Shown in pieces: positions 38,180 through 55,867 of a stretch of 56,877 nt of DNA. Every line of letters starts with the position of its first letter. Position 1 is the first letter of the stretch. Origin of the DNA: Prevotellaceae bacterium (lineage in GTDB: Bacteria > Bacteroidota > Bacteroidia > Bacteroidales > UBA932); assembly GCA_031288865.1 (NCBI GenBank), contig JAITQN010000037.1, positions 1 through 56,877 on the forward strand, given 5' to 3'. Below the pieces are notes generated by a model. That model was not told the DNA's origin, made no database searches, and saw nothing but the letters and a program-made list of their open reading frames with translations. The position numbers and the translations under genes were made by a program.

Positions 38180-38431
38180 ATGATGCTCTTCGGACAGCTA
38201 TCCAACCGTGAAAGCCTCAGGGATCTGATAACAGTAGTCCAAGCACACCGCTCCAAAGCCTATCACCTGGGATTGGGCAAGGCGGTAAATATCTCAACCC
38301 TCGCCTGCGCCCGCCGACTTCGTGCTAATGCGGCCTTTGAGGTCAACACAAACGGAGAGATATATGCCTTCGACTCCTCTACCATATCACTGTGCTTATC
38401 CGTAGTCTGGTGGGCGACATACAAGCGCCAA
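38180..38431 (+). pseudogene. IS4-family (DUF4372-type) transposase remnant, N- and C-truncated with an internal deletion
   Basis: FGQLSNRESLRDLITVVQAHRSKAYHLGLGKAVNISTLA and GEIYAFDSSTISLCLSVVWWA match two conserved N-terminal blocks of Bacteroidota IS4 transposases, but the ~45 aa normally between them are missing. The DDE domain is absent. The ORF continues to 38746 in unrelated sequence. Confidence 0.6.
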
Positions 38432-39162
38432 TACATCTCGAAGTATATTTTTTCCGGACGACCCGTCGATTATACAGGGTTATACCAACTATTGATTAAT
38501 AAGAAGAACGAAATTGAAGCTTATGAATTAAGTTTGATAAATCAAGGTGGGGAACTAACACCGGAACGACTTAATGGGTTTGTCGATAACATTTTGTTGT
38601 CTAAGGATAAAATTAGGGATACATCTGATGGGCTTAATATAGATACTGTATTTCCAAAGGTTTCAGAACAGGAAATTATAAACACCTCTAATGCAGATAA
38701 ATATCCGGTCTGGATTATTTCACGTCCAATCAAAGGAAAAAAGTAGTTGTAAAAATAAAAAGTAGTTGTAAAAAGATAAAGACATATCTCAATCTATCAA
38801 ATTTTCTAAATAACACTTTGTGTTGTTCCTCCTTTTTCGATAACGAGTGGTGCAAGTTTTCATCATTGCGAATCCGCTCCAACTCGTCGGCTACGATTTG
38901 CTTGGTTTCGGCTTTGATACGTTTGTAGTTTTCCTGTAGCTTAAAGTTCCGGCGGCTATCCGCTTGTTATCGACAATAATCTCGCAATGAAGATCTATGG
39001 TCTTTGCTGTATCGTCAACCACCTGACCGGAAAAGATATTATCTGCCGTATTCATAACGACAGCGGCTTCTTTGTCGCCATAAACGCCCCGAAGCTATGT
39101 TTCTGGGGCATGGCAGCTTGTGGTGTTATGTTGATAAATAATATCCGTCTACATCCAATTTT

Positions 39163-40380
39163 CTACCAAAATTCATACATTACCATCAGAAATTCCATGC
39201 TTTTATTCTTTTTATCTTTTAAAATGTTCCTTAGCTCCTCATTTTCAAAACTCGCCATATTGTTTTTTGATAGCGTTATCATTTCTTCTACTTCGTGAGG
39301 TAAATAAATTCCTACATAATGATTATTATAAATAGTCATCGGGCGCGGTATAATATTAGGAATATTTATTTTATTATCAATCGGTATCTCTTTGGGAGTA
39401 AAAGATTTATTTCTAGCTTTATCGAACCAATAAGTTGTTGAAGCAATCATATTGTTTTTTTCATGTGCTATTTGATAGGAAACAAATCCTTTTGTTTCTA
39501 ATATTGGTGGCTTCAAATGGGTGTAATTAGAATGTTGTATTAAATTGAAAACTTGCTGCATAGTTAGATACTCCTTTCTTTTCTCCCAAAGGCTTTTTTT
39601 CTGATTGACAACATACTTGGCAGAGTACGTGGAATCATTAATGATTTGGTAGATCGTATCAGATAAAACGGGAGTAAATAACAACTGTTCTTTATAATTA
39701 TATTGTAGCGCATTACTAATGATCGCTTCTTTTTGTATTGGATAATAAGGAAATCCTTTGCATATAACGGAGTCAATGGAAGATATTATTAAATTATAAT
39801 TATGTTCTATATCCAGACTATACGATTGAGCAAATGTGGTTTGATTTACAAACTTATCGCCAAGCATTTCTAAATAAAAACAGGGAGCTGCCTTGGTTTT
39901 TTTGACAAATTGACCATTCAGCGAATAATAAAGCATACTTAATGAAAGTCGATCCGGTATAACAATTAGTGTATCTTTCCTTGATATAGTTATATCCATC
40001 AATCCATGATATTCTTCTGGCCCTCCTCCTTTGCTGTGAATGATGTGAATCAGTTTTCCCGAAATATCAAATATATATATACTTTCGGATTTAAATGCAT
40101 CCAAAACGATCACATGATTATCATAAATGACTAATTTATCAAATATTCCAATAGGTTCTTTAGAAAAAAACGGGATATAACGAATATCTTTAATTTTTGT
40201 GTTAATATCTTCCAATGGCAGCGATTCAAAATCGTGCGCGTCAATAATCTCAACCGGTAAATCTTGTCTTAATCGAAAAGATTCAGATGCTAAAATTTGG
40301 GAAGTAACCGGATTCTTTTCCTTTGTTTTACATGAAATTAATAGGAGAGTCACTGCTATGTAGATGGATATTTTTTTCAT
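39163..40380 (-). CDS. Six-bladed-beta-propeller-type lipoprotein (BF3164/DUF5128-like), paralog 0
   Basis: Lipobox LLLISCKTKE. Shares family blocks with six paralogs downstream (DKLVIYDNHVIVLD, IFDISGKLI, SKGGGPEEY). Confidence 0.75.
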   Translation of the reverse strand: MKKISIYIAVTLLLISCKTKEKNPVTSQILASESFRLRQDLPVEIIDAHDFESLPLEDINTKIKDIRYIPFFSKEPIGIFDKLVIYDNHVIVLDAFKSESIYIFDISGKLIHIIHSKGGGPEEYHGLMDITISRKDTLIVIPDRLSLSMLYYSLNGQFVKKTKAAPCFYLEMLGDKFVNQTTFAQSYSLDIEHNYNLIISSIDSVICKGFPYYPIQKEAIISNALQYNYKEQLLFTPVLSDTIYQIINDSTYSAKYVVNQKKSLWEKRKEYLTMQQVFNLIQHSNYTHLKPPILETKGFVSYQIAHEKNNMIASTTYWFDKARNKSFTPKEIPIDNKINIPNIIPRPMTIYNNHYVGIYLPHEVEEMITLSKNNMASFENEELRNILKDKKNKSMEFLMVMYEFW

Positions 40381-40753: not shown

Positions 40754-43225
40754 TTAGTTTTTAACTTTTAGTTTCAATTTGTCTTCCAACATTCTTATGT
40801 AAACCGCTCCGACAACCGGTCGTGCAAAAAACATCCGGTGGGTTGGTGTATCCGTGTTGTAAAAATCGGGCATCGGGTCACGGTGCATTGTTTCGTTCAT
40901 AAACCGGTAGATTGGAAGGATAAATTTTCTGAACGAAGCACTATCATTTGTCAAAGCTGCGGTAAACAGCGACCAGTCTGTTTTTGCATATTGTTCCCGC
41001 CCATCCAGCGGAAGCCCGTATTCATTTAGTTTCATCGCATAGTAGGCCTCTTCTGTTTCGGTAATATAGGGCGAAAATATATTCATATTCAATATTTTAT
41101 CCCAGATAAGATTGTATTTCTGGCTCCAGGTACTGTCAACCTGGTCGAATGCCATTTTGTAATGATCGCGTGCGTTTGCCGCCCGTTCCCACTCTTTTGC
41201 CATTTCCTTTGCCCGCCTAATATACGATTCTCCCAGTTCTTTCTGCTTCAGCATACTCGCCAAACGTCCGTAGGAGGCGATTCCCAAAATGGCTTTGATG
41301 GATAAATTGGTGTTTTGGGAATAGCTTGGCGCAAAATTATCACTCGTTATTTGATTTTCCGGATATACCCCGATTTCAAGCAAATAGCGTGTCCAGCGAG
41401 AAAGCGTTTCCCAATGCTTAGCCGCATAGCCGGCGTTTCCTTCTACGGTAGCGATAGCTGCAGCCATGATCAACATATTGCCGACTTCTTCTATCGGCAA
41501 ATCGGCGAAGAAACTCTGTCCGTTCGCCAAGGGATAATATCCTACATCGTGCGCCGGATATGGCTTCTGCCACTGTCCACTTTCGCTGTAGTAAAATACC
41601 GGATTCATCAGGGCTTTCATCAATTCGGTATTGTAATACAGGTACAGGGGCGAGGCAGGAAAAAATATATCCACTACACCCATCTCTATGCCAAACAACA
41701 TGCGCTCTCCTTCGGACGATGCCACTAATTTATACGAGGTTGCAGTTTGCCGGTAGGCTAAAGCACACAGTCCGGCATATTCTTTTCCGCCAAGTTCTGT
41801 GGCTTTCACCATGATTTCGTGATTCAGGCGGGCACACTTTTCTACTAACGAGACGTATTCCCTGTTTGCATCCCGGAATACCTGTTCGATATGCCGGTTC
41901 TCTTTCCGGTTCCAGTATGGGCGGAGATTTTCGCCAAAATACTGGATTGCAAATATATCATCGTATCCAGCCAGGATTTTTCCCGATGCTTTTTTCGATT
42001 TTCCCAGCGCTTGACTGATGGCTATCACGGAATTTTCCTCCGATTTGGCACATTCCTGCAGATGTCCCGTTTCCAGAAATGACTTTCGCATAACAACCGG
42101 ATAGCCGACGTCGCATGTGGCGTTTTCTTCTTCGGCGCTCAGGTAAAAATAACCCCATCCTTCAGCATCCCTGTCCAGCATTTTCTGTACAATACTCCCG
42201 GTTTTGGCAAAGAGCATTTTGTCTTTCCGGTAACATTCCGCTTGACTGGGACGGTTGCTTTTTGTACATGCCCATTCCGGGTGAGCTTCCAGATAGATTT
42301 CGACCTGATGTTCTTCTCCGTCTAAGGAGTTGGTTTTATAAGCAATATAATTAACTGGACGTCCCATTAAATCCACATTGTCTATTAGGAAAGGCGCTAT
42401 GAAACTAAGTTCCAGTTCTACATTTCCACATTCAAAAACATATTGTGTTTGGGTAGGTTGAAGATCTACCGATTTTTGAACGGCAGTTCTTTCTAGGCAA
42501 GAGCCCGCATGTTCCGCATAAATCCCAAAATCGACCAAACCACCGCCATAGAAGTTATGACAATGAGCAGCGATCGTTATTTTTCCGTCCAATGCCTTTT
42601 CAATGATTTCTTTAGGAATCTCCACTTCCACATTCTTGTACCATTCATAACCGGTTTTTACCAACACGATGCCGTTGACATACAACTCAAAAGTATCATC
42701 ATGAGAATACCTCAATATGAACCGCTTTCCTTTGGTGGAGGTGTCATTTAATCGAATTTCCCGGCGCACCCATATATCGGATGAAAGCCACAGGGTATGT
42801 ACATTTTGTTCTTCTCTTGTTCCGAAAGCGGCTTCGCCTTCCATCCAATGGCTGTCATCGAAGTCGGTTCTCTGCCAGCCTTCGGTGGGTTGCTCGAATG
42901 TGTATTTGCCATACCATTCATTTTCGTAAGAGATGGGAGCTAAGACTTCATGAGCTACTACATCCAGGCCCATAAAGCGATAGACTTCGCCATCGACGCG
43001 AATAGCGCCCACCATCGGCATTTCTCTTCCAAAAGAACTTTTAACCGTTTGCCGGTATAATGTATCTGTTCTTATCCAGGAACTGATCTTCGGGTCTATC
43101 GTTACAAGGGGATATGCCGGAGAGCGAAGTTCATTGCGAATGAACGGAATCTGCGATGTGTCTTTCTCACACGAAGTGACGATAAAACACACCAAAGGGA
43201 GCAATAAAAGAGTTATCTTTCTCAT
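40754..43225 (-). CDS. Glutaminase-A-like putative glycoside hydrolase (DUF4964/DUF5127/DUF4965/DUF1793 architecture), intermediate-GC copy
   Basis: ATG 43225 (MRKITLLLLPLVCFIVTSCEKD). LRSPAYPLVTIDPKISSW, VGAIRVDGEVYRFMG and YDDIFAIQYFGENLRPYW are collinear with 30746-33247. Confidence 0.8.
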   Translation of the reverse strand: MRKITLLLLPLVCFIVTSCEKDTSQIPFIRNELRSPAYPLVTIDPKISSWIRTDTLYRQTVKSSFGREMPMVGAIRVDGEVYRFMGLDVVAHEVLAPISYENEWYGKYTFEQPTEGWQRTDFDDSHWMEGEAAFGTREEQNVHTLWLSSDIWVRREIRLNDTSTKGKRFILRYSHDDTFELYVNGIVLVKTGYEWYKNVEVEIPKEIIEKALDGKITIAAHCHNFYGGGLVDFGIYAEHAGSCLERTAVQKSVDLQPTQTQYVFECGNVELELSFIAPFLIDNVDLMGRPVNYIAYKTNSLDGEEHQVEIYLEAHPEWACTKSNRPSQAECYRKDKMLFAKTGSIVQKMLDRDAEGWGYFYLSAEEENATCDVGYPVVMRKSFLETGHLQECAKSEENSVIAISQALGKSKKASGKILAGYDDIFAIQYFGENLRPYWNRKENRHIEQVFRDANREYVSLVEKCARLNHEIMVKATELGGKEYAGLCALAYRQTATSYKLVASSEGERMLFGIEMGVVDIFFPASPLYLYYNTELMKALMNPVFYYSESGQWQKPYPAHDVGYYPLANGQSFFADLPIEEVGNMLIMAAAIATVEGNAGYAAKHWETLSRWTRYLLEIGVYPENQITSDNFAPSYSQNTNLSIKAILGIASYGRLASMLKQKELGESYIRRAKEMAKEWERAANARDHYKMAFDQVDSTWSQKYNLIWDKILNMNIFSPYITETEEAYYAMKLNEYGLPLDGREQYAKTDWSLFTAALTNDSASFRKFILPIYRFMNETMHRDPMPDFYNTDTPTHRMFFARPVVGAVYIRMLEDKLKLKVKN

Positions 43226-43418
43226 AACAGTATCGTTTTTATTTCCATATTTGTTCACCTTTCTTGTAAAGAAAAATTCGTTCCTGTACGTTCCGGCTAT
43301 GATTTTTCAGATACAGCAATGTGTCGGCTGGAACATTTTGATAAAACAGCTTCTTTTCCATTGGCGTCGATGGTTAATCGGCTTTACATCCCTCCTTTTT
43401 TTGTGTTCGTGCAGGGCT

Positions 43419-43688: not shown

Positions 43689-43810
43689 GGCGTTTCAAAA
43701 AGGGCATAAAGATTTCTCTGCAAAGATAACATATTCTTTTTGAAAAACAATTAAATATGTGCGAAATGGAGGGTGACCCAGTCCATTAAATAATTTTTTC
43801 CATTCAAAAA

Positions 43811-44038
43811 CTTTCATTACCTTTGCCACCAAACCAAACAATATGAATTCTTTTCATATTATATTTATAAAATCTGTTTTCTATTTTCACACGCCCACTA
43901 TCTGGCTACTGGGCAAAAATAATTTCGATAGGTAAAGCCCTTGCTGCGCTCTTGCCGGCAGAGGCTTTGACCAAATAAATTTACCGCCTTGTTTATTCAA
44001 AAAGTTGTGCATAGTACTATAAATTCCGCAACGTTAAT
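43811..44038 (+). promoter_or_regulatory. Conserved non-coding leader, type 2, copy 1 (upstream of the transglutaminase-like gene)
   Basis: About 230 nt alignable by eye over most positions with 55868-56149 (e.g. ctatctggc..tgggcaaaaataatttcga.aggt.aaagc.cttgc.gc.ctcttgccggcag.agct.tgacc.aataaatttaccgcc). Confidence 0.6.
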
Positions 44039-45760
44039 ATGAAAAATATCCAAAATACTATCATTATGCTTGCTGCATGTGCCGTTTCCTGCACCAGTTT
44101 TTCTCCAGAAATAGAGACGGTACTGAAACAGGCGGGTAACAACCGTACCGAGCTTGAGAAGGTGCTGAAGCATTATGGCAAAACCCCTGCCGACAGCCTG
44201 AAACTGCGGGCAGCGGAATTTCTTATCACAAATATGCCGGGCAAACGCTCGGAATATTATGAGGCGCCGTGGAACGATGTGGCAACGGCGCTCCTTCGCT
44301 GGACAAGCTCGTCGGACAAGCAGATGGTGGCGAATACTTACCGTTTGGGTAAACCGGTAATCAAAGAAGACGTAAAGTATATCACCGCCGACTATCTGAT
44401 TAATAACATTGAATTGGCATTCAAAGTATGGCGGGAACAACCCTGGGGCAAATATATTCCTTTCGATGTTTTCTGTGAGGAGATACTGCCCTACCGGTTA
44501 GACATAGAGCCGCTGGAAAACTGGCGGGAAAAAGCGCTGGCAAGTTTCGCCGACCTGAACAGGTCGTTTAAGGACGATTCGACCATCACGGCGGTGGAGG
44601 CTTGCAGCAAGGTGAACGATTTGTTGCCGCGTTTCAGGTTAGACAAAGATTTTCCGGCGATGAACTATTCGCAGTTGATGGCGTCGACAAGAGGACCTTG
44701 CGATGCGATGGCCGCACTGGCTGTTTTCAGCATGAGGGCGCTGGGCATTCCCGTGACATTCGATTTTACGCAACTGTGGCCCAACCTGGGGCATGGACAT
44801 ACGTGGAACACTGTGCGCGACAGTACGGGAAGGCATCTGTCCTTTATGGGGGCTGAATCCAATCCGGGAGTTCCTCACTTGGGGTCAATCGCGCTCAAGA
44901 ACAAGGTGTACCGTAGAACCTTCGCCAAACGTCCCCTCTCGGTAAACGACAAATCCTTTTCGTTGGTTTTCCAAGACAATATCGTAGATGTTTCCGGAGA
45001 ACATGAAGGGTTTTACAAACTCAATATTCCGGTAAAATATCCGCCGGCCGGCCAGGCCGGTTATGCCTACCTGGCGGGCAAACACTTTTCACAGTGGATT
45101 ATCGTCGGATGGGGTGTTATCGACGGCGACACCATCCGGTATGCCCCTGTCGGGAGTCAAGTTCAGTACCTTCCCGTATGGTATGTGGCCGGCGGGCTTC
45201 AACCCGCCGGTGACGTGTTTGCGTTAGACAAGGACGGAAAAATTTTCTCCGTAAGCAACGAACATAAACCCTTTAAAGGACCGCACATCCTTTCAAAAGC
45301 CGCTCCCTGCATTATTCCGATGCGCGATTTCGACATGGGCGGGGAAGGCGTGGCTTTTCATGATATTGACAACTACAATTCTCAGATAGAAGGCGATGAG
45401 TACCGTAGAAGCCACGGCGATATGAACAGTTTTCCGGTGGATGTGGAAAAGGGGACAAATATTGCCTGGTCGGCGCCTGGAGAATGGCTGCTATATACGG
45501 TAGAAGTACGGGATGCCGGAGAATATCAGTTGTCCATCAGCGTATCTACACTGCTGGAGCCCACATTTCACCTGGAGGTGGATAGTCGGAATGTGTCAGG
45601 CCCTATATCCGTATCCCCTACCGGAGGATGGGCCAATTGGACGTGGTATCCCGACAAGCCCCTGCGCATACACCTGACTGCAGGAACTCATCAGATCAAG
45701 TATTACTTGGAATCCGGTGAGAACAATCTTCATGAAATGAAGCTGGAATATAGTAAATAG
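44039..45760 (+). CDS. Transglutaminase-like cysteine-protease-fold protein with C-terminal CBM6/35-like domain
   Basis: Core CDAMAALAVFSMRALGIPV ... GHGHTWNTVRD (Cys...His...Asp). C-terminal GEWLLYTVEVRDAGEYQLSISV ... TGGWANWTW ... LTAGTHQIKY is typical of CBM6-type modules. Confidence 0.75.
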   Translation: MKNIQNTIIMLAACAVSCTSFSPEIETVLKQAGNNRTELEKVLKHYGKTPADSLKLRAAEFLITNMPGKRSEYYEAPWNDVATALLRWTSSSDKQMVANTYRLGKPVIKEDVKYITADYLINNIELAFKVWREQPWGKYIPFDVFCEEILPYRLDIEPLENWREKALASFADLNRSFKDDSTITAVEACSKVNDLLPRFRLDKDFPAMNYSQLMASTRGPCDAMAALAVFSMRALGIPVTFDFTQLWPNLGHGHTWNTVRDSTGRHLSFMGAESNPGVPHLGSIALKNKVYRRTFAKRPLSVNDKSFSLVFQDNIVDVSGEHEGFYKLNIPVKYPPAGQAGYAYLAGKHFSQWIIVGWGVIDGDTIRYAPVGSQVQYLPVWYVAGGLQPAGDVFALDKDGKIFSVSNEHKPFKGPHILSKAAPCIIPMRDFDMGGEGVAFHDIDNYNSQIEGDEYRRSHGDMNSFPVDVEKGTNIAWSAPGEWLLYTVEVRDAGEYQLSISVSTLLEPTFHLEVDSRNVSGPISVSPTGGWANWTWYPDKPLRIHLTAGTHQIKYYLESGENNLHEMKLEYSK

Positions 45761-45807
45761 TGGTTAAGAATTATGAATGCTCAATATCTCTACACTAAAA
45801 ATATTCG

Positions 45808-46236
45808 TATCTTTGCTCGGCGTTATTTCCAAATAATGTCGAATTTAAAGTGCGATTCCTGTTTTGCAAAAATGCAAATAGATTTTGATATTTTATTGTG
45901 ATATGCGATAAGAAGATTGATGTTGTTTATATTGAATGCCATAGGAATTAACACAAGGTTGCTATGCATATCTGCATATCCGAGACAAGCAGAACTGCGA
46001 GACTTAAACCTCTGTGGTAGACAAAATCAAACTGCGATTTCGTAATACAGGAAAGCATGTACTATTTGGGAATTTGGGAAAAACAAATTCACCTGAGATA
46101 GCCTTTGCCATAGCTTTCCTTGTTGGCAAGGGTGATAACAGTTCGAAAGAGAGCCCTTAAAGGAAACGTAAAGGTTTGATGCGAAAAAGAGCCATTGATA
46201 AAAAACTGATTTTAGAAACAATAAAAACTAAAAACT
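45808..46236 (+). promoter_or_regulatory. Long conserved leader, type 1, copy A (putative -7 box TATCTTTG plus ~420-nt 5' UTR)
   Basis: Near-identical by eye to 48035-48474 apart from scattered substitutions and small indels. Conservation begins at about the TAnnTTTG-like box (45808-45815) and runs to the NVEALA start codon. Confidence 0.6.
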
Positions 46237-46584
46237 ATGAGAAAAAATGTTTTGGGCTTAATAGCCTTATTCGTAGTTGCAATTGTGGCTGCATGGAATG
46301 TGAGTTTAAACTCGCAAAATAATAAATTATCGGGGCTTTCCTTGGCCAATATAGAAGCCTTGGCGGAAGGGAATGAAGAGGAAAATAATAAGCCTACATG
46401 GCAAGTAGGAGAAAAAACAATTCAAACAACTACTTCTCCGGGATGGGAATGGGATGTTTCAGTGAACGGATGGTTCTTTAACGGGAAAAGGACTTCTAGT
46501 AAACCTCCAGAAATCACAACAGTGAAAATTAAATGTTGTAGAGCACAAGGAGACGTGACATCTTGTTCATACGAATCTTGCTAA
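46237..46584 (+). CDS. NVEALA-motif small secreted/anchored peptide 1 (115 aa; 4 Cys in the variable C-terminus)
   Basis: MRKNVLGLIALFVVAIVAAW (n+h region), NVSLNSQNNKLSGLSLANIEALAEG, then a unique tail ending ...KCCRAQGDVTSCSYESC. Confidence 0.8.
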   Translation: MRKNVLGLIALFVVAIVAAWNVSLNSQNNKLSGLSLANIEALAEGNEEENNKPTWQVGEKTIQTTTSPGWEWDVSVNGWFFNGKRTSSKPPEITTVKIKCCRAQGDVTSCSYESC

Positions 46585-46665
46585 AGAATTGGGGCCATTT
46601 CAATAAAATGTATTTGTTATTTTTTGTTTTGGCCTCTAATTATAATTTATTATTTTAAATTAATT

Positions 46666-47859
46666 ATGACAAAATATTGTTTAACTTATATTATTGTAAT
46701 CTTACTGTTTGTGTTGGCAAATTCCTGTGATAATAATAAAACAGGGAAAACATCAGCGGAATATGATATGATAAAAGTAGATATCAATCAAACAGGAATA
46801 TTAGACTACAATGATTATTTTGCTTCAGTAAATTTGACGCCGCTTGAAACAAATGAGGAATCATTAATCGCTCAAATTGATAAACTGTATATTACAGACA
46901 AATATATAATTATTTTCGATCAAAAAGCGATGAACATATTACTTTTTGAAATTAACGGCAGATTTCTTAATAAGATTGGTTCTAAGGGTAATGGTCCGGA
47001 CGAATATGCTTTTTTTAATGATATCCAGTTTAACAAAAAAGATTCCATGATATATGCTCATGAACGTTTTCGGAATTGTATATATACATACGATCTTTCA
47101 GGAAAGCTAATAAAGAAAAGTTCTCGGTCAAAAATTTCTTTCAATTCGTTTTACAAAACAGATGAAGGATATTGGGTTTACAGTTGCTTCGAAAGCGGTA
47201 ATCCGGAAAAACATAATTTGATGTTATTAGACGAAGATTTAGAGCGCGTCAAAAAAGCATTTTTCCCACAAGAGAGTTTTATAAATACAACATTTTCTTC
47301 TACATTCATTACAGATGAGAAAGAGAAAGTATTCTTTATTTACCCTTCAAGCAATATCATATATGAATTATTACGGGAAGATGCACTCCCATTTGCACAA
47401 ATTGACTTTGGGAACAAGACAATGCCATACAAGCAGATTACTCAACTGAAAAACATGGATGAATACGATAAACTGATCGCCGATAAGAAATATTTGGGCA
47501 ACATTTCTAATTACAAAATCAATCAAAATTATTTTTTCTTCTCTTTCAGTGAAACAGGATTTAATGTGACTGTACCTATGTATAACTGTTTCTATAATTT
47601 CTCCACAAAAGAGGTGAATATTTATAAAAATCCATTTATTGCATCCATGAATTATCCTGTATCCTCCTATTTATTATATGCTTCTGATGATGTGCTTATT
47701 TACCCTATCTACCCAATGATATTGTCAGATGATAGTTTTGACATTTTGAGCAAAACTTTATCTGCAGATATCCAATATGATTCAAATCCCATTTTAGCCA
47801 TGTCTAAATTAAAAAACAAGCGCGAACAAATAACTGAAATTCACGAGAAATGCCATTAA
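46666..47859 (+). CDS. Six-bladed-beta-propeller-type lipoprotein, paralog 1
   Basis: ATG 46666, lipobox FVLANSCDNN. Blocks LTPLETNEESLIAQIDKLYITDKYIIIFD, FEINGRFL and SKGNGPDEY. Confidence 0.8.
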   Translation: MTKYCLTYIIVILLFVLANSCDNNKTGKTSAEYDMIKVDINQTGILDYNDYFASVNLTPLETNEESLIAQIDKLYITDKYIIIFDQKAMNILLFEINGRFLNKIGSKGNGPDEYAFFNDIQFNKKDSMIYAHERFRNCIYTYDLSGKLIKKSSRSKISFNSFYKTDEGYWVYSCFESGNPEKHNLMLLDEDLERVKKAFFPQESFINTTFSSTFITDEKEKVFFIYPSSNIIYELLREDALPFAQIDFGNKTMPYKQITQLKNMDEYDKLIADKKYLGNISNYKINQNYFFFSFSETGFNVTVPMYNCFYNFSTKEVNIYKNPFIASMNYPVSSYLLYASDDVLIYPIYPMILSDDSFDILSKTLSADIQYDSNPILAMSKLKNKREQITEIHEKCH

Positions 47860-48034
47860 GAACCTTTGATTGAAAATGCACCGTAATCCGGCTCTGATCT
47901 GTACAGGCTGATAAAATGCCTTATTGTCAGATGATTATTGATAAAAAAAGCATCTCCGCATAATTTTACTATACAGTAGTGATAAATTTTCTCAAAGAAT
48001 TTCTATTTGTTTGAGTATGAATTAAAAATATTTG

Positions 48035-48474
48035 TATCTTTGCTCGGCGTTATTTCCAAATAATGTCGAATTTAAAGTGCGATTCCTGTTTTGCAAAAAT
48101 GCAAAAAAATGTAAATAGATTTTGATATTTTATTGTGATATGCGATGAGAAGGTTGATGTTGTTTATATTGAATGTTATAGAGGTTGACAGGGCACTGTT
48201 AAGCATATCTGCATATCCAGAAGAAACGGGGATGCGGAACTTAAACCTCTGTGGCAGACAAAATCAAACTGCGATTTCGCAATACAGGAAAGCATATACT
48301 ATTTGGGAATTGGGGGAAAACAAGTTCACCTGAGTTAGCCCTTGCCATAGCTTTCCTTGTTGACAAGGGTGATAACGGCTCGAAAGAGAACCTTTAAAGG
48401 AAACGTAAAGGTTTGACACGAAAAAAGAACCATTGATAAAAAACTGATTTTAGAAACAATAAGAACTAAATGCT
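48035..48474 (+). promoter_or_regulatory. Long conserved leader, type 1, copy B
   Basis: TTTG (48010-48013), N21, TATCTTTG (48035-48042), then ~430 nt collinear with copy A. Confidence 0.6.
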
Positions 48475-48732
48475 ATGAGAAAAAATGTTTTGGGCTTAAT
48501 AGCCTTGTTTGTAGTTGCAATTGTGGCTGCATGGAATGTGAGTTTAAACTCGCAAAATAATCAATTGTCCGGGATTTCTTTAGCCAATGTAGAAGCCTTG
48601 GCGGAAGAAAACAATGATCATAAGTATGAAAACAAAAGGATAAATGAAATAACTATTCATGATGATGCAACCGGAACATATAAGAAAATAGCAGTGATAG
48701 AATGTGAAGGTAGTGGAAATCTTGATTGTTAA
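48475..48732 (+). CDS. NVEALA-motif peptide 2 (85 aa; 2 Cys)
   Basis: The constant N-terminus differs from peptide 1 at two residues before the LANVEALA motif (K30Q, L34I) and by I39V within it. LSGISLANVEALAEE, then a unique tail ...VIECEGSGNLDC. Confidence 0.8.
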   Translation: MRKNVLGLIALFVVAIVAAWNVSLNSQNNQLSGISLANVEALAEENNDHKYENKRINEITIHDDATGTYKKIAVIECEGSGNLDC

Positions 48733-48938
48733 ATAAAACTTGATTATGGGAGGCTATATCGAAAGTCATTTTCACCTGTCATTGCAAATATAACGAAACA
48801 AAGATAGACATTTTTTTGGTATTGCTTAATGTCTATTTGTTATAGATATACAGAAATAATATAAAGTAATATTTACAAGGATAGTGAGTCAAGCCAGTCC
48901 CAAGAAATAATTTTTGAAATAGCCTCATAATAATTGAA

Positions 48939-50111
48939 ATGAAAAATTTACTTTGTATTACAGCATGTTTTAGTTTATTGATTGTAATTATTTCATGCAA
49001 CAGGACACGGGAAAAACATATCCGGAACAATTACGAAACGGATAAAATCGTTGTTGATATTAATAGGGAAGACAAGTCATCCTTTGACGATTTTTTTGAA
49101 TATTCGCATCATATTGTATTACAAACAACTGACAATTCCTTGATTTCAAGAATAGATAAAATGCAAATCAGGAATGACAGACTGTACATATTAGACAGAA
49201 CGGGGGTCATACTTGTGTTTGATACAAACGGAAATTTTATAAAAAGGATTAATCATAAGGGACAATCCGGTATGGAATATATAAGCGCCCACGATTTTGA
49301 GATAGATACGGAAGATAATCTATATATCTGCGATTTTCTTGGAAGTAAAATTCTGAAATACGATAAAAATGACGAATTTATTACGGCAATTAAACTTCCT
49401 GTAAAAAGTCCTTCATTTAAATTAATGGGAAAAGATTGTTATGCATTTGACCTCCGTAATGGAGCGAATACTTCGGGGGAAAAAACTTTTTTTAATTATT
49501 TATATTATAAGAATGGATATATCACTTGTAAAGCATTGCCTTTCAATCCAAACCTGCAAGGTCATAGCTTTTCTTACGGTTATGGATTGTCTTCATTCTA
49601 TTTGTATAACAAAAAAACATTTTTGACAAGTACGATGAACGACACCGTTTATACTATTAATGAAAATGGATTCCCAATACCGTTTGCAATCTATGAATTT
49701 GGCCTTAAAAAACCGGAATTATCTTTTTCAAAAGAGGAAATTGAACAATATCTAAGGGAACAACAACGAGGAAATAAGATATCCGGCATCTATTGTTTTT
49801 ATTTGTTTAATGATTTTCTTTTCATTTGTTTTGATTACCGGGGGCAAACTAATTATGTAATATCAAAAATAAATGAATCTCCGTTATTTATCGGAAAATT
49901 TGGTTATGATAAAAATGGATTATGTATTATTCCAATTGCATACTTGTCTGATTTTCGGCAACCTCAGTTAGCAACAATTATTGATCCGGATTATTTGTCA
50001 AGTTTACTAAAAAAACGAAAAGCCACAGATAATTCTGATTTACTGTTGAGCATGCAAAAATCAGTTGTAGAAGAGGATAATCCTATTTTGGTTTTTTATA
50101 ACTGGAAATAA
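48939..50111 (+). CDS. Six-bladed-beta-propeller-type lipoprotein, paralog 2
   Basis: Lipobox LIVIISCNRT. Blocks LQTTDNSLISRIDKMQIRNDRLYILD, FDTNGNFI and HKGQSGMEY. Confidence 0.8.
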   Translation: MKNLLCITACFSLLIVIISCNRTREKHIRNNYETDKIVVDINREDKSSFDDFFEYSHHIVLQTTDNSLISRIDKMQIRNDRLYILDRTGVILVFDTNGNFIKRINHKGQSGMEYISAHDFEIDTEDNLYICDFLGSKILKYDKNDEFITAIKLPVKSPSFKLMGKDCYAFDLRNGANTSGEKTFFNYLYYKNGYITCKALPFNPNLQGHSFSYGYGLSSFYLYNKKTFLTSTMNDTVYTINENGFPIPFAIYEFGLKKPELSFSKEEIEQYLREQQRGNKISGIYCFYLFNDFLFICFDYRGQTNYVISKINESPLFIGKFGYDKNGLCIIPIAYLSDFRQPQLATIIDPDYLSSLLKKRKATDNSDLLLSMQKSVVEEDNPILVFYNWK

Positions 50112-50240
50112 AAACACGAAAACTTATGCAGGAAGGATTATACACATGCAACAGACAAAAAATATCATTCAATCTAATTCAATAACATTTCGATTAATTT
50201 TGAGATTGTCGCAATTTTAATATAACAAATACAATAATAG

Positions 50241-51212
50241 ATGAAAATATTAGTATTAATCTGTTTATCAATAGCAGTATTTATCTCATCGTGTCAAAAA
50301 GGCGAAAATGTATCCGGTAACACAATTCCTATAGAGTTGCCGGCAGAGGCGATAAATAGTAAAGAAATAGCAGAGAGTGAAGATGAATATTTCGATTCAA
50401 TGAAATATATTCAATTAGAATCAAAAGAAGACATTACTTTAGGTAAAATTGATAAGATTTTAATTACGGAAAACCGGATATATATATTGGATATTTTCAA
50501 ATATGGCGGTGTGATTATTTATGACAGGGAAGGACAAATTGTAAATGCAATAGACAGAAGAGGGCAAGGACCGGAAGAATACAATTATATTTTCGGGATT
50601 TTCTATGACCAGCAGGATAGTACAATCAATCTTTTGTGCCGGTATCCGAATAAAATAATGAAATTCGATCAAGACGGCTATCTTCTTATCAAACAAATTG
50701 AACTTCCTGTTGCTTTAATTGATATTAAAAAATCAACTGATGGGTATTACATAGGCTATGCAGGTTCTTCTTCTATCAATAATTCATACTCTATTTATAT
50801 CTTTTCGGAAAAGTTTAAGCTTGTTGCTTCCGAATACCCCAACCACAAGGAATGGCAAATATACAGAATGGACAATACCTTGTCGTCCTATTCGGACAAT
50901 ATTTATTTTACTCCAATGTATGGATATACCGTCTATACAATAAAGGAGAAGAGTATCGCGCCGCTTTACGTGTATGATTTCGGTAAAAATAATAAAGTTT
51001 TGATGGTTGGCAATCCGGTATTGAATCCGAAAATCTGGAAATTATATAAACAGACTGTTTCCGGACAAACGCAAACAGCAATAAATACAGAAACAATATT
51101 TTTAACAAATGTTGTTGTTGAACAGCCGGAAGAAATAGGCGCTTTTCACAAAACGATTCGAGTGCATTGTAATGTGGAAAACAGGGATCACCGGAGTTTG
51201 TCTTTGCCATAG
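50241..51212 (+). CDS. Six-bladed-beta-propeller-type lipoprotein, paralog 3 (short; 3' end apparently replaced)
   Basis: Lipobox VFISSCQKGE. Blocks LESKEDITLGKIDKILITENRIYILD and RRGQGPEEY. Only 323 aa; the last codons run into the copy-C leader repeat (from ~51175). Confidence 0.65.
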   Translation: MKILVLICLSIAVFISSCQKGENVSGNTIPIELPAEAINSKEIAESEDEYFDSMKYIQLESKEDITLGKIDKILITENRIYILDIFKYGGVIIYDREGQIVNAIDRRGQGPEEYNYIFGIFYDQQDSTINLLCRYPNKIMKFDQDGYLLIKQIELPVALIDIKKSTDGYYIGYAGSSSINNSYSIYIFSEKFKLVASEYPNHKEWQIYRMDNTLSSYSDNIYFTPMYGYTVYTIKEKSIAPLYVYDFGKNNKVLMVGNPVLNPKIWKLYKQTVSGQTQTAINTETIFLTNVVVEQPEEIGAFHKTIRVHCNVENRDHRSLSLP

Positions 51213-51328
51213 CTTTCCTTGTTGACAAGGGTGATAACAGTTCGAAAGAGAGCCCTTAAAGGAAACGTAAAGGGTTGATGCGAAAAAGAGCCATTGATAA
51301 AAAACTGATTTTAGAAACAATAAAAACT
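51175..51328 (+). promoter_or_regulatory. Leader type 1, copy C (3' ~150 nt only)
   Basis: ...ctttgccatagctttccttgttgacaagggtgataacagttcgaaagagagcccttaaaggaaacgtaaag...aaaactgattttagaaacaataaaaact is collinear with the 3' parts of copies A and B. The upstream ~280 nt are missing. Confidence 0.6.
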
Positions 51329-51643
51329 ATGAGAAAAAATGTTTTGGGCTTAATAGCCTTATTCGTAGTTGCAATTGTGGCTGCATGGAATGTGAGTTTA
51401 AACTCGCAAAATAATCAATTGTTCGGGATTTCGTTAGCCAATGTGGAAGCCTTGGCGGAAGGGAATGAAGAGGATAATACCAAGAAATGCAGCAGAATTG
51501 TTCGTTCATGTACTTGTTCACATCCGGACAAAGGTTTTGTTGGTATGGCCATCCTTGAATGTGAAGAATATATATGGCGTGCTCCAATGGTACAGCAGAC
51601 ATGCAGAACTAGCAGTTGTCCTTACGGTGCAAATTGCTCATGA
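51329..51643 (+). CDS. NVEALA-motif peptide 3 (104 aa; 7 Cys)
   Basis: Start at ATG 51329 (MRKNVLGLIALFVV...). The first 87 nt are identical to peptide 1. LFGISLANVEALAEGNEED, then a unique Cys-rich tail ...CSRIVRSCTCSHPD...CRTSSCPYGANCS. Confidence 0.8.
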   Translation: MRKNVLGLIALFVVAIVAAWNVSLNSQNNQLFGISLANVEALAEGNEEDNTKKCSRIVRSCTCSHPDKGFVGMAILECEEYIWRAPMVQQTCRTSSCPYGANCS

Positions 51644-51649
51644 AATAGT

Positions 51650-51696
51650 AACAGTGTAACAATTTGAAATTGATTATTTCAAATTGTTACACTGTT
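51650..51696 (+). promoter_or_regulatory. Perfect 21-bp-stem hairpin between peptide 3 and its propeller gene
   Basis: AACAGTGTAACAATTTGAAAT (51650-51670), loop tgatt, ATTTCAAATTGTTACACTGTT (51676-51696). No T-run follows. Confidence 0.7.
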
Positions 51697-51713
51697 CGAT
51701 AAATATATTATGT

Positions 51714-52808
51714 ATGAAAAATTTGAGTATAATCATATTAGGAACACTTGCCGCATCTTGTATTCAATGCGATAGCAGGAATATACATACTGATACTGTA
51801 CATATACCCTCAGCCGTCGATAAAATGATGGTAACGGATGATTTGTTCGATAATTTCGAGTTTATTCCATTAGAAACTTCCGAAGAAAGTTTATTTGGAT
51901 ATATAGACAAAATCATCATTCATAACGATAAATTCTATATACTTGACAAAACAAAAACAAGAAGAATTAATGTTTTTAATTCCAATGGTAAATTTAGTCA
52001 TACTATAGGGAAACGTGGTGATGGGCCGGAAGAATATACAAAAATAGAAGATTTTACAATCGACGAGAAAAACGGTCAGGTTATTATTCTTTCTTTTCCT
52101 TCAATTCTTTACAGATATGATTTGGAGGGGAATTTTATGGAAAGGAAAAAAATATCTGATTATTTGTTATGGCATATTTGTTATGATGGCGCTGAAGGTT
52201 TTTTATGTTCTACCGATTATCAATCGTCTGAAAGTGATTATTTGATCCATCATTATGATAAGGATTTTACTTTAAAAGATCGAAAAATAAAATCAACAAA
52301 CGGAATTGTAGCTATGCCGCCTCTTAATATTAATCCTTTTATAAAAGATGGGGATAAAATATCTTATTTTGATTTTTACACGTCAACATTACATTGGAAT
52401 ATTTTAAATGCGGAAGAAAAACAAATAGTGTTTGAGTTTGGAAATAAAAAAGTCCCATTTGAAGCCTATAAAGATCCCATGCGATTTTATGAGAAACAAC
52501 AGGATTATAATTTTTTTATAACAGCAGTTATCGACAAAGGATTGTTTTGGTCATCATACAGCAATCACGGTCAAGGCGCAAATATTTTAATAACAGACAT
52601 TACTAATGGCAAAAAAATATTATTGAAAGATTCCCGGTTCTTGGAGATATTATGTTGTCATGACAGTTATTTTTATCAAGCATACTCCCCATTAACGTTT
52701 TTGGAAGGAAATTTTAATTTTTCTGCCAAAGTAATATCAGATTACAGTGTTGAGTTTGACAGTAATCTTATGATCTTGAGATTTAAGGCCAGGCGAGTTT
52801 TTAATTAG
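51714..52808 (+). CDS. Six-bladed-beta-propeller-type lipoprotein, paralog 4
   Basis: ATG 51714, lipobox LAASCIQCDS. Blocks IPLETSEESLFGYIDKIIIHNDKFYILD, FNSNGKF and KRGDGPEEY. Confidence 0.8.
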   Translation: MKNLSIIILGTLAASCIQCDSRNIHTDTVHIPSAVDKMMVTDDLFDNFEFIPLETSEESLFGYIDKIIIHNDKFYILDKTKTRRINVFNSNGKFSHTIGKRGDGPEEYTKIEDFTIDEKNGQVIILSFPSILYRYDLEGNFMERKKISDYLLWHICYDGAEGFLCSTDYQSSESDYLIHHYDKDFTLKDRKIKSTNGIVAMPPLNINPFIKDGDKISYFDFYTSTLHWNILNAEEKQIVFEFGNKKVPFEAYKDPMRFYEKQQDYNFFITAVIDKGLFWSSYSNHGQGANILITDITNGKKILLKDSRFLEILCCHDSYFYQAYSPLTFLEGNFNFSAKVISDYSVEFDSNLMILRFKARRVFN

Positions 52809-52820
52809 AAGATTTGATTT

Positions 52821-53084
52821 ATGAGAAAACATTTCACTCTCCTTGTAATTATCGTAGCGATACTTACTGTATTGTTAGCATATTCGACTTTAGGTTTAGT
52901 AAAAATGAAGAAGAATTATATACAAACAGAAAATATAATTATAAAACAAGCAGATATGATTTATATTCTGACCGATTTTATAAAAGTTTCATGTAAACTT
53001 AATAAAACAAAACTTATTAACTGTCAGCTGTTTGATGAAAACAACTTGAGTATGTCAAAAACTCTTTTTTCATGTTCTCAATAG
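52821..53084 (+). CDS. Small single-TM protein (87 aa), possibly an N-terminal relic of a thioredoxin-fold paralog
   Basis: N-terminal TM (FTLLVIIVAILTVLLAY), then KMKKN..., with the same layout as 54303-54911 (TM, then RMKSKQ...). It ends ...KTLFSCSQ, where the longer protein has ...LVLCFSENSCDEC. The similarity is weak. Confidence 0.4.
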   Translation: MRKHFTLLVIIVAILTVLLAYSTLGLVKMKKNYIQTENIIIKQADMIYILTDFIKVSCKLNKTKLINCQLFDENNLSMSKTLFSCSQ

Positions 53085-53139
53085 AGTCAAGCACATTTCA
53101 GCACAAAAACTGATTTTAGAAACGATAAATACTAAAACG

Positions 53140-54306
53140 ATGAAAAAGATTGAATTATTTTATTTCATAGCAGGCTTGATTGCACTTGCTTCTTGTTCAA
53201 GAGAAAAAGTGAACACGTTGGTAGAAATCCACATAGACCCTTCCCAGGTGGAATCGGCTTATGATATAGCCGGTGATATTGAATCCGAATGGGATATTAT
53301 CGCATTAGAAACAACCGACAATTATTTGATAAGCGCTATCAACAAGCTATATTATCAAAATGGAATTTATTACTTATTAGACAAGAACGGGCATACCGTT
53401 TTTTTATACGATTCGTCGGGGAAAGCTATTTCAAAGCTTTACAAAAAAGGCGAAGGTCCGGATGAATATTCTATGATTGAAGCGCTTGCCATCGTAGATA
53501 AAAACATCTGGGTTTCTGATTCTAACCTGCGATCTTTAATCTGTTACGACGAAAACCTGAAAATGACAGATCGCTACAAAACGTTTGATATAATGAGCGT
53601 TTACGATATGGTAACTATTGACGGAAATATTTGTGTTGCAGCCAACTGGTCAGGATGGAATGACCAAAATATTGAATGTGGAATCTACAACACGGCTAAC
53701 CGGGAAATAACCGGATTTTTACATGTACCCAAACAAAAAGAGGAAATCGCCACTTTCAAAAAAACAAATCAGTTAGCCGGGAGTGAAAATTCATGCCTCT
53801 TTATCCATTCGTATTGCGACACGATTTTCCAGCTAAGTAATAATGAATTTTCTCCTGCTTATAAGGCAGTCTTCAAAGAAAGGTACGAAGACATTCCGCT
53901 ACCAATAGAGAAAATAATGGAACCTTCCCTTGCTCACATAATCAGAGGGATGGAAAATATTAAACAAACCTCCCAAAATATCTTTATTAGTTATCTTGAT
54001 ACAAGGAAATTCATGACCGCTATGTATAATAAAAGCAAAGGAGTCTGCCGGGTTTACCACTATTTGATAAATTCCAACATCGGCGCCTTGCCAATATTCC
54101 TGTATAATGCATTTTTTGACGAAAATAACATAATATCCGTACACGAAGCGAGTGAGGTTTTGGATTTTTTTGGTAATGAGTCTAATCTGGCAAAAATAAA
54201 AAATGAATCGGATAGAAAAAAAATAGAAACCATCATGTCTTCCATTGACCCTTATTCCAATCCGGTACTAATCCGGTATAAGTTAAAACCAAATTCGTCT
54301 TTATGA
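53140..54306 (+). CDS. Six-bladed-beta-propeller-type lipoprotein, paralog 5
   Basis: Lipobox LIALASCSRE. Blocks IALETTDNYLISAINKLYYQNGIYYLLD, YDSSGKAI and KKGEGPDEY. Preceded by the last ~30 nt of leader type 1 (aaaactgattttagaaacgataaatact). Confidence 0.8.
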   Translation: MKKIELFYFIAGLIALASCSREKVNTLVEIHIDPSQVESAYDIAGDIESEWDIIALETTDNYLISAINKLYYQNGIYYLLDKNGHTVFLYDSSGKAISKLYKKGEGPDEYSMIEALAIVDKNIWVSDSNLRSLICYDENLKMTDRYKTFDIMSVYDMVTIDGNICVAANWSGWNDQNIECGIYNTANREITGFLHVPKQKEEIATFKKTNQLAGSENSCLFIHSYCDTIFQLSNNEFSPAYKAVFKERYEDIPLPIEKIMEPSLAHIIRGMENIKQTSQNIFISYLDTRKFMTAMYNKSKGVCRVYHYLINSNIGALPIFLYNAFFDENNIISVHEASEVLDFFGNESNLAKIKNESDRKKIETIMSSIDPYSNPVLIRYKLKPNSSL

Positions 54307-54911: not shown

Positions 54912-54928
54912 ATATCATCCCATATTGT

Positions 54929-55825: not shown

Positions 55826-55867
55826 AATGAGGATAATATGGATAAAATAATTTTACATATTCAAAAC

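Follow-up and report, generated by a model that had tools for sequence, protein, structure and literature searches.

Homogenised leaders and conserved core families in an NVEALA peptide gene array of a termite-gut Prevotellaceae bacterium

How do neighbouring genes come to share nearly every nucleotide of their upstream region and leader and yet encode unrelated peptides directly behind it? The question is raised by contig JAITQN010000037.1 of a Prevotellaceae bacterium (GenBank assembly GCA_031288865.1; positions 1 to 56,877 of the forward strand, hereafter the window, 56,877 nucleotides in all), in which the region 45.8-56.9 kb holds an array of four genes, g1 to g4, for small peptides of the NVEALA family (PF14055), together with five genes, p1 to p5, for propeller lipoproteins. 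The original prediction, made from the letters alone, had described g1, g2 and g3 as a constant module joined to a hypervariable one, the pattern expected from recombination-driven cassette exchange or from diversifying selection on the exported part. Comparison within and between genomes revealed that the unusual evolutionary behaviour is the within-genome homogenisation of the constant part and not a property of the cores, the part of each peptide that follows the leader. The interpretation first offered was half right: the array is modular and recombination-driven, but its cores are neither diversifying nor hypervariable.

The 'NVEALA protein' family PF14055 is of unknown function and has no published characterisation, leader/core model, partner gene or regulation; no published work on it was found, and the string PF14055 in the literature stands for Plasmodium gene identifiers. 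All four peptide genes scored above its gathering cut-off of 27 bits, their products measuring 85-115 amino acids (aa) against 62 positions in the model, and the name-giving motif reads NIEALA in g1 and NVEALA in g2, g3 and g4. The peptide genes and their parts are as follows.

46237-46584, +: g1, NVEALA peptide gene (PF14055, 39.1 bits)
46237-46365, +: g1 leader of 43 codons, a hydrophobic N-terminus and then ...LSLANIEALA (PF14055; codon comparison)
46366-46584, +: g1 core, 72 aa with 4 Cys, where the variable cassette begins (orthologues P0002, P0003 and P0004 have other leaders)
48475-48732, +: g2, NVEALA peptide gene (PF14055, 32.5 bits)
48475-48603, +: g2 leader (PF14055; codon comparison)
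48604-48732, +: g2 core, 42 aa with 2 Cys (translation, identity profile)
51329-51643, +: g3, NVEALA peptide gene (PF14055, 39.1 bits)
51329-51457, +: g3 leader (alignment, codon comparison)
51458-51643, +: g3 core, 61 aa with 7 Cys, its first seven codons EGNEEDN being g1-like (identity profile, codons)
56150-56434, +: g4, divergent NVEALA peptide gene outside the g1-g3 homogenisation group (PF14055, 38.9 bits; alignment)

The constant module and the leader/core junction

Identity along the genes was measured by MAFFT alignment and sliding windows of 30 nucleotides (nt). Starting as far as 440 nt upstream of the ATG and running through ...GAAGCCTTGGCGGAAG, the DNA of g1, g2 and g3 was 93-100% identical. 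Between g1 and g2 this block spans ~575 nt (45796-46369 versus 48023-48607), with most 30-nt windows 90-100% identical and interruptions by one 10-nt indel and by an island of ~70 nt (45930-46000) at ~60% identity. The constant module of more than 550 nt that had been proposed is therefore present in g1 and g2, but in g3 the block covers only ~290 nt, starting from ~51188 (g1 position 46089). Directly after GAAGCCTTGGCGGAAG (46369), the identity of g1 and g2 dropped from 24-30 to 8-14 of 30 nt, and that of g1 and g3 dropped ~20 nt further on, past the EGNEE(E/D)N codons, the background level being reached within ~20 nt of the junction. The decay is abrupt and not gradual, confirming a sharp boundary, and the profile agrees with the departure points first read from the sequence, g2 leaving after GAAGCCTTGGCGGAAG and g1 and g3 staying alike through EGNEE(E/D)N.

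The original description of the leader also held at the level of single codons. Over nt 1-87, g1 and g3 are identical and g2 carries exactly two substitutions, synonymous in each case, in codons 11 and 12; across 44 leader codons, differences among the three genes affect 5-9 codons (3-6 of them synonymous), and synonymous positions in the leader hardly vary within the genome, in line with the conservation of silent sites that had been claimed for the constant part. The paralogous cores of g1-g3 could not be aligned, with lengths of 42, 61 and 72 aa and differing Cys patterns.

The same architecture was found in other genomes. The family survey scanned one genome per species for the motif and yielded 73 NVEALA peptides from 46 genome loci in Bacteroides, Phocaeicola and Parabacteroides (human gut), termite-gut Bacteroidales and Sphingobacteriia; numbers such as L001 denote NVEALA loci or contigs from other genomes and metagenomes, and P-numbers their proteins. 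The residues N, E, A and L/A of the motif were invariant in the 73 peptides, of which N, E and A/S had been demanded by the regular expression used for collection. In same-genome pairs, the leaders showed identities of 0.83-0.98 and the cores were unrelated in all but a few pairs, as exemplified by the window, Phocaeicola faecalis L024/L044, Sphingobacterium L026 and TD116_bin80, a metagenome-assembled genome (MAG) of a termite-gut Bacteroidales member. Nucleotide identity in these other genomes was likewise at background within ~20 nt of the ALA codon, with constant blocks extending 230-540 nt upstream, and the sharp junction was seen in the cultured strains Phocaeicola faecalis FXJYN30E22 and Sphingobacterium sp. 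UT-1RO-CII-1.

Core families, partner genes and homogenisation

In a protein search with g1, homologues matched the core over its full length and had different leaders. In L001, the g1 orthologue is followed by an orthologue of p1, the same gene order as in the window. The g1 core and its L001 orthologue share 49 of 70 residues (70% at the aa level), with proportions of nonsynonymous (pN) and synonymous differences (pS) of 0.20 and 0.37 and a ratio of nonsynonymous to synonymous rates (dN/dS) of ~0.45, and the two leaders share 21 of 43 (49%; pS 0.72); p1 and the gene following the g1 orthologue are 72% identical (pS 0.61). The core was more similar than the leader in most of 22 cross-genome pairs with homologous cores, the exceptions being two pairs identical in both parts and L026/L037, in which the leader was the more similar part. 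Core families recurred across orders and classes at 46-71% identity, and the regions of the constant module were only ~50-60% identical between genomes. An open reading frame (ORF) of at least 200 aa starting at most 450 nt downstream was present behind 63 of the 73 peptide genes, and the downstream proteins were 42-80% identical in 15 of 18 cross-genome core-homologous pairs, against a background of 27%.

The cores fall into discrete, conserved families, and a core and its immediate downstream gene are co-inherited between genomes. The variable unit is a cassette of core and partner gene, the partner being a propeller where identified (the window and L001), and the constant unit is genome-specific. 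Across genomes the cores are at least as conserved as the leaders, and the g1 core, 70% identical elsewhere, is better conserved than its own leader; the hypervariability first attributed to the cores is contradicted by these comparisons, and at a dN/dS of ~0.45 the g1 core gives no sign of diversifying selection on the exported part.

The partner genes of the window are the following.

46666-47859, +: p1, DUF5128 lipoprotein with an NHL-like six-bladed beta-propeller, cognate to the g1 core (PF17170, E=2e-38)
48939-50111, +: p2, DUF5128 propeller lipoprotein (Pfam)
50241-51212, +: p3, truncated propeller fused to a thioredoxin-like/DUF1573 remnant (Pfam profile positions 14-230 of 321)
51714-52808, +: p4, DUF5128 propeller lipoprotein (Pfam)
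53140-54306, +: p5, DUF5128 propeller lipoprotein (Pfam)

All five have lipoprotein-type N-termini, as read from the translations, and resemble NHL repeats in a sequence search against PDB chains, NCBIfam giving weak NHL-type matches only. Because p1-p5 are only 24-33% identical to one another, the peptide-propeller units are ancient. This divergence rules out recent duplication of whole units, and, set against 93-100% identity in the constant module, it upholds the earlier judgement that the pattern is not ordinary paralogue drift.

Within the genome, the leaders and 5' untranslated regions (5'UTRs) are homogenised, with a mosaic pattern of substitutions. The g3 copy equals g1 at 10 consecutive informative sites (46140-46272), g2 at six consecutive ones (46324-46351), and g1 again from 46370; when the mosaic was tested by permutation, the count of runs had a P of ~0.013 and their lengths a P of 7e-4 (with one site fewer than counted). 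Since the substitutions are mosaic and the propellers have diverged beside a near-identical constant module, it is probable that gene conversion keeps this module near-identical in a two-module architecture with portable core-propeller cassettes; copies of the constant module within one genome would then undergo concerted evolution. The junction would be sharp, and fall at one and the same position in all copies and genomes, because conversion tracts end where homology ends, at the leader/core boundary, and purifying selection alone is insufficient because the same regions are only ~50-60% identical between genomes. Of the recombination-driven cassette exchange that had been proposed, the recombination stands, as evidenced by the mosaic substitutions in the constant part, and the exchanged hypervariable module does not.

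Two sites in the array are rearrangement scars. The profile match of p3 ends at position 230 of 321 (truncation at about residue 250), followed by an in-frame fusion to a remnant resembling the C-terminal end of the thioredoxin-like/DUF1573 genes that other loci have upstream of their NVEALA genes, and its reading frame extends into a degenerate copy of motif A, the 5' element described below, in front of g3. When neighbour genes were sought by tblastn in 48 NVEALA loci, the p3 tail matched regions in 18 of them, the match in the Dysgonomonas locus L034 falling inside a thioredoxin (Trx)-DUF1573 gene. The fusion is a deletion scar directly upstream of g3. In addition, the last 33 nt of the constant 5'UTR (AAAAACTGATTTTAGAAACGATAAATACTAAAA) are repeated, as repeat family D4, at 53105-53137, directly before the p5 start codon, where a peptide gene may have been deleted or a translation-initiation region may be shared. 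Both sites are consistent with active recombination in the array. In the 5'UTR of g3 (51278-51328), the loss of 7 nt brings an upstream ATG at 51278 into frame, by which gene callers extend g3 by 17 codons (P0005, 121 aa); judged by g1 and g2, the true start is probably 51329 and the start at 51278 an artefact.

Further observations in and around the array stand apart from these. Contigs of run X1, a termite-gut DNA metagenome, join 45770 to 55850, skipping the 10-kb array from g1 to the S26 gene, and link one subtype-II 5' module to the other (43940 to 56148); the joints could be island-less or recombined variants, with flanks of only 30-36 nt that are too weak to use. In a Parabacteroides distasonis MAG (L015, 5684-6006), a 321-nt stretch from the start region of one NVEALA-type gene to that of its neighbour is missing from one run's contig, with 12 nt common at the joint and one peptide gene removed (runs X4-X6), and gut metatranscriptome contigs cover parts of both genes, weak evidence of expression for this relative only. 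A perfect 20-bp inverted repeat with a loop of 5-7 nt (51650-51696) directly follows the stop codon of g3 and precedes p4; it may serve as an attenuator or terminator separating the two genes. An 87-aa ORF (52821-53084) begins MRKHFTLLVIIVAIL..., like the start of an NVEALA leader, and has 3 Cys but not the NVEALA motif; it had no family match in Pfam/NCBIfam scans and may be a degenerate or different small membrane peptide.

The 5' module and its RNA element

The constant 5' module occurs in two subtypes, listed here with the scores of R1, a covariance model of motif A.

43793-44012, +: subtype II, copy A, upstream of the transglutaminase-like gene; candidate -7 box TACCTTTG at 43818-43825; motif A 43896-43978; R1 69.7 bits
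45796-46236, +: subtype I, copy 1; candidate -7 box TATCTTTG at 45808-45815; motif A 46060-46146; hairpin 46101-46133; R1 85.6 bits
48023-48474, +: subtype I, copy 2; motif A 48297-48383; hairpin 48338-48370 (repeats, identity profile, covariance model)
51188-51328, +: subtype I, incomplete copy 3; only the distal UTR and the hairpin-bearing half of motif A (51200-51232); 7-nt deletion before the ATG; R1 29.8 bits
55853-56149, +: subtype II, copy B, upstream of g4; motif A 55962-56045

Copy 1 of subtype I was recognised by the repeat families D2, D3 and D5, of which D3 is 96% identical in the partial copy 3, and the subtype-II copies are ~82% identical over ~220 nt (43793-44012 versus 55853-56095) and joined to two unrelated coding sequences. 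The Bacteroides -7 box has the consensus TAnnTTTG. From this consensus, candidate boxes were assigned to g1 and g2 (TATCTTTG at 45808-45815 and 48035-48042, ~420 nt before the ATG), as in the copies listed above. The constant module would accordingly consist of a candidate promoter, a 5'UTR of ~400 nt and the 43-codon leader.

Comparison with other loci revealed motif A, an element of ~85 nt consisting of ATTTGGnAnTTGGGnAAnAAnAAnTTC, a 10-bp hairpin and GTAAC. In 23 aligned instances, pairing in the hairpin was 93.9%, and compensatory substitution was seen in five of the 10 pairs (27 cells); this covariation was reached by none of 500 shuffles, out-of-register pairing controls collapsed, and the hairpin was present in both the minimum-free-energy and centroid folds. 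R1 found the motif before g1, g2, g4 and the transglutaminase-like gene, and in degenerate form before g3 (51168-51245), where the 5' end of the g3 block (~51188) lies inside motif A and only this degenerate copy stands upstream, a boundary that, like the mosaic, bears the mark of a gene-conversion tract and speaks for partial conversion at g3. Motif A was also detected at L001, L003, L006, L007, L017, L023, L036, L050-L052, L056, L059-L061, L063-L065 and L072, before single, non-arrayed genes as well as in arrays, and in metagenome contigs upstream of more NVEALA genes and of small Cys-rich peptide genes with double-glycine leaders.

Motif A is a 5'UTR element with a covarying hairpin that is not in Rfam. 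At gathering score, Rfam 15 gave no NVEALA-associated match in the window and 13 related loci, the single match being an unrelated group II intron in L006, and at E of 10 or below no credible match was obtained in 45700-46400. Like the cis-regulatory RNAs of Rfam, the motif stands upstream of genes in one orientation and at a set position and combines a covarying hairpin with conserved single-stranded sequence. It is a candidate new regulatory RNA of peptide-precursor genes in Bacteroidales. Other identities were considered and set aside: a sigma-54 or Bacteroides sigma-A promoter has an unfit spacing, as judged by eye, and the hairpin covariation favours RNA; an integron attC-like site is met by neither an integrase nor an RYYYAAC/GTTRRRY core; and the inverted repeat 45856-45887/46022-46053, considered as a long-range helix or invertible segment, was not conserved in one related locus (L006). 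A second short hairpin (CGUG...CACG, then G/U-AAAAA) nearer the start codon was seen by eye only.

A different upstream element, motif B, was observed 30-330 nt upstream of the NVEALA genes that Bacteroides, Parabacteroides, Sphingobacterium and others possess (L005, L010, L011, L014, L019, L020, L034, L035, L037, L040, L043, L047 and further loci). It comprises, in order, a GC-rich hairpin (GGGCGG...CCGCCC), CCCTCC-AAAAAGAAAGGAGG, GCAAAGATAA and a short hairpin with the near-invariant loop TGAAATGATAGAT, in which UGAAAUGAUAGAU is the near-invariant loop sequence and the stem appears by eye to covary. Its GCAAAGATA is the reverse complement of the Bacteroides -7 box, for which reason motif B could also be a divergent small RNA gene or promoter. 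It is not in Rfam.

Leader fate, rival explanations and known systems

Three further genes of the array bear on how the peptides may be processed.

44039-45760, +: transglutaminase-like lipoprotein with C-terminal CBM6 (Pfam CBM_6, E=9e-11; Transglut_core weak, E=7e-4, below the gathering cut-off)
54303-54911, +: thioredoxin-fold membrane protein with a CDEC (CxxC) motif (weak AhpC-TSA and Redoxin matches; CxxC read from the translation)
54929-55825, +: S26 signal-peptidase-I paralogue with the catalytic motifs SSMEP, KRCVALPGD and GDW..DSKDSRYWG (PF10502, E=2e-34)

The NVEALA leader opens with M-[KR]-K, continues through ~17 hydrophobic residues and a polar stretch, and closes with L-S-x-[LI]-x-L-A-N-[VI]-E-A-L-A, often followed by x-G-E; A-L-A is the canonical -3/-1 site of signal peptidase I. 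The cores of the 73 peptides have a median length of 40 aa and 8.8% Cys, with 2, 4 or 6 Cys in 79% and a Cys within the last three residues in 47%. Among the 48 loci searched by tblastn, homologues of the S26 paralogue lay near NVEALA genes in 10 (38-58% identity in eight, weaker or partial in two) and homologues of the transglutaminase-like gene in 13, and the L034 locus runs transglutaminase-like, Trx-DUF1573, two NVEALA genes, propeller, S26.

As a model, the precursors would be Sec-exported via the hydrophobic N-terminus, with an amphipathic pro-segment up to A-L-A; the S26 paralogue, as candidate leader peptidase, would cut after Ala-Leu-Ala; thioredoxin-fold proteins, the CDEC protein being a candidate, would oxidise the cores to disulfides; and the mature peptide would act with, or against, its cognate propeller lipoprotein. 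From the features of leader, core and neighbouring genes, export, cleavage after A-L-A and core disulfides are likely. No recognised modification enzyme (radical SAM, LanM/LanB/C, YcaO or similar) appeared in Pfam/NCBIfam scans of the peptide, propeller, Trx-like, S26, 87-aa ORF and transglutaminase-like genes, and disulfide formation may be the only modification. No C39-peptidase ABC exporter was present among the ORFs of 44-56.9 kb, nor was any dedicated exporter found in scans of the window. Homogenisation is plausibly favoured in that all precursors of a cell share one processing, folding and regulatory apparatus, which would consist of the S26 paralogue, the thioredoxin-like/DUF1573 proteins, the transglutaminase-like lipoprotein and the common 5'UTR element.

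By analogy, the peptides and their partners are probably bacteriocin-like or polymorphic toxin/immunity-like pairs. A wider proposal is put forward only tentatively and is on balance doubtful: an undescribed polymorphic secreted disulfide-peptide system throughout the Bacteroidota, with cognate NHL-propeller partners (immunity, receptor or chaperone), a dedicated signal-peptidase-I paralogue, co-regulation by structured 5'UTRs and homology-anchored cassette capture. Under this proposal, the genes would be co-regulated through motif A in Bacteroidales of the termite gut and through motif B in Bacteroides, Parabacteroides and Sphingobacteriia, and the UTR motif and NVEALA-coding DNA would double as homology anchors that capture incoming core-propeller cassettes behind the resident leader.

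Several points speak against the account given so far, from gene conversion to maturation. The informative sites in the mosaic test number 19; with 31 and 47 synonymous sites, the gap in pS separating leader from core, seen in a single orthologue comparison, does not reach significance by itself; and g4, in the same genome, is not homogenised with g1-g3, homogenisation acting within subgroups only. The accessory genes were found in fewer than half of the loci fetched, a set with many short members. The ALA site lies ~22 residues past the hydrophobic segment, which is atypical for signal peptidase I, and the precursor may be cut earlier (VAA|W) or not at all; the AlphaFold2 model of the g1 precursor (four sequences, pLDDT 47.7) was not usable. 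Transcription start, cleavage site, disulfides, secretion and activity are all deduced from sequence, and no published work on the NVEALA family was found that speaks to the function of the peptides or partners.

The same distance to the hydrophobic segment, far for a signal-peptidase site, is what an uncleaved leader would account for, with the N-terminus as membrane anchor, the NVEALA helix as stalk and the Cys-rich ectodomain binding the propeller lipoprotein. The lack of a dedicated exporter in the window and the low-confidence AlphaFold2 model, which draws residues 5-43 as one helix, accord with it, but the invariant A-L-A is the canonical -3/-1 motif, the S26 paralogue is recurrently linked, and the small even-Cys cores resemble secreted disulfide peptides. 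Such an anchor, unlikely on this evidence, would leave the evolutionary logic of the array unchanged.

Gene conversion would be superfluous if every nucleotide of the constant module were constrained by RNA structure, regulator binding or leader recognition, as the covarying hairpin of the 5'UTR and the invariant NVEALA motif might indicate. Between genomes, however, identity of ~50-60% and a leader pS of 0.72 imply that most positions are free to vary; moreover, the near-identity is genome-specific, the substitutions are mosaic, and the 5' boundary of the block depends on the copy (45796 for g1/g2, 51188 for g3), making constraint alone an improbable cause.

It is very unlikely that g1-g3 are ordinary paralogues whose exported part was driven apart by point mutation behind a conserved leader. 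The abrupt fall of identity where the exported part starts and the diversity of cores across the family would suit that explanation, but the paralogous cores cannot be aligned and differ in length and Cys pattern, the orthologous cores are conserved (dN/dS ~0.45) and recur across orders and classes, and selection on the peptide does not explain leader synonymous sites that are near-invariant within the genome.

Programmed cassette switching by a dedicated enzyme, as in integrons, shufflons or diversity-generating retroelements, with the module and its hairpin as recombination site, deserves hardly any credence. Repeated modules holding a structured inverted repeat do flank gene cassettes, and scars are seen at p3 and before p5, but unlike those systems the array has no integrase, invertase or reverse transcriptase dedicated to it within 43-57 kb, and the single integrase lies ~41 kb away (3555-4847). 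Furthermore, each peptide gene has a start of its own and is complete, the cores bear no relation to one another and are not mutagenised copies of a template, motif A also precedes single, non-arrayed genes, and 290-575 nt of plain homology suffices for RecA-type recombination.

Finally, identical leaders produced by metagenome assembly (repeat collapse or chimeric contigs) can be dismissed with near certainty, for although the window comes from a termite-gut metagenome and the Logan contigs of run X1 break at the repeats, the g1-g3 copies each have private substitutions and indels, X1 contigs span two leader-core junctions without differences (g1, 46294-46911; g3, 51393-53304), and the same architecture occurs in cultured strains and many unrelated assemblies.

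Regarding the surroundings of the array, the window sequence was present in only one public run, X1; no RNA run containing it was found, and an exact 21-mer of its leader matched no contig in the JGI metagenome collection. The closest relatives of the array genes are from MAGs of termite-gut Dysgonomonadaceae, Proteiniphilum, Tannerella and Prevotellaceae. The array is AT-rich (~30-36% GC across 46-55 kb), and the central 30 kb of the contig has 51-66% GC. Over 1-57 kb the GC content is patchy, with 51-66% at 9-37 kb, a region resembling glycoside-hydrolase (GH)/polysaccharide-utilisation loci with GH28 and fn3/rhamnosidase-like proteins, and 30-40% at 1-6 kb, which includes the tyrosine integrase (3555-4847), at 38-41 kb and in the NVEALA array. 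In the low-GC patch 38180-40380, a sixth DUF5128 propeller gene (39163-40380, minus strand) is an orphan with no NVEALA gene beside it and adjoins a DUF4372 transposase-N-terminal fragment (38180-38746). Close to the array, on the minus strand, is a glutaminase-A-like gene (40754-43258), whose homologue is likewise placed in the Dysgonomonas locus L034. A tRNA/tmRNA scan found none, and PADLOC gave no defence-system match.

Among known systems, one conserved leader with many diverse cores is found in the prochlorosin ProcA/Nif11 family (PMC10783134), and conserved leaders with diverse cores are found in class II bacteriocins with double-glycine (GG) leaders, including the bacteroidetocins of Bacteroidetes (PMC6671954). 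Like these precursors of ribosomally synthesised, post-translationally modified peptides (RiPPs) and bacteriocins, NVEALA genes occur several to a genome with near-identical leaders, unrelated cores and an abrupt boundary at the processing site (here predicted), and one processing machinery would serve many substrates. Unlike RiPP precursors, they have no recognised modification enzyme in the cluster. Unlike GG-leader bacteriocins and bacteroidetocins, the leaders of the window end in E-A-L-A without a GG (GA/GS) motif and contain the ~17-residue hydrophobic segment, and the linked peptidase is an S26 signal-peptidase paralogue instead of a C39-peptidase ABC exporter. Two further differences from both groups are that each core has an adjacent propeller lipoprotein gene and that the constant block reaches ~440 nt into a structured 5'UTR.

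Polymorphic toxins provide a second parallel, in which CdiA-CT/CdiI and Rhs cassettes are bounded by VENN or PxxxxDPxGL motifs (PMC3150448, PMC4436062). Shared with them are an invariant short motif at the constant/variable junction, unrelated C-terminal parts, a cognate gene directly downstream that is co-inherited with the variable part, and, as in toxin arrays, rearrangement scars and conserved DNA at which recombination can swap cassettes. Unlike in contact-dependent inhibition (CDI) and Rhs systems, the constant part is only a 43-aa leader and not a large N-terminal delivery domain, the variable parts are Cys-rich peptides of 28-72 aa and not enzymatic toxin domains, and the partners are propeller lipoproteins of ~390 aa and not small cytoplasmic immunity proteins, the likeness being architectural. 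In conopeptide superfamilies, divergent mature peptides rich in disulfides follow a signal sequence whose conservation includes silent sites; these are eukaryotic genes with introns, and the mature toxins diverge by accelerated substitution. The NVEALA cores differ in forming discrete conserved families behind a leader that recombination homogenises. The combination of constant leader, diverse cores and cognate partners is of a kind known elsewhere; what is new here is an uncharacterised family and an uncatalogued 5'UTR motif.

For the NVEALA family, until now a 'domain of unknown function', these results provide a testable model of a genome-specific leader and 5'UTR, a portable core-partner cassette and a dedicated S26 peptidase, and the locus itself is a clean case of concerted evolution acting on a regulatory-plus-leader module beside unrelated coding DNA. 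A mining rule follows, whereby leader and UTR nucleotides find all cores within a genome and a core is traced across genomes via the gene that follows it, which is relevant to peptide natural-product mining and to antagonism among Bacteroidota. If the peptides do antagonise or signal, the family would be a large and so far untapped source of disulfide peptides, each coming with its own specificity partner.

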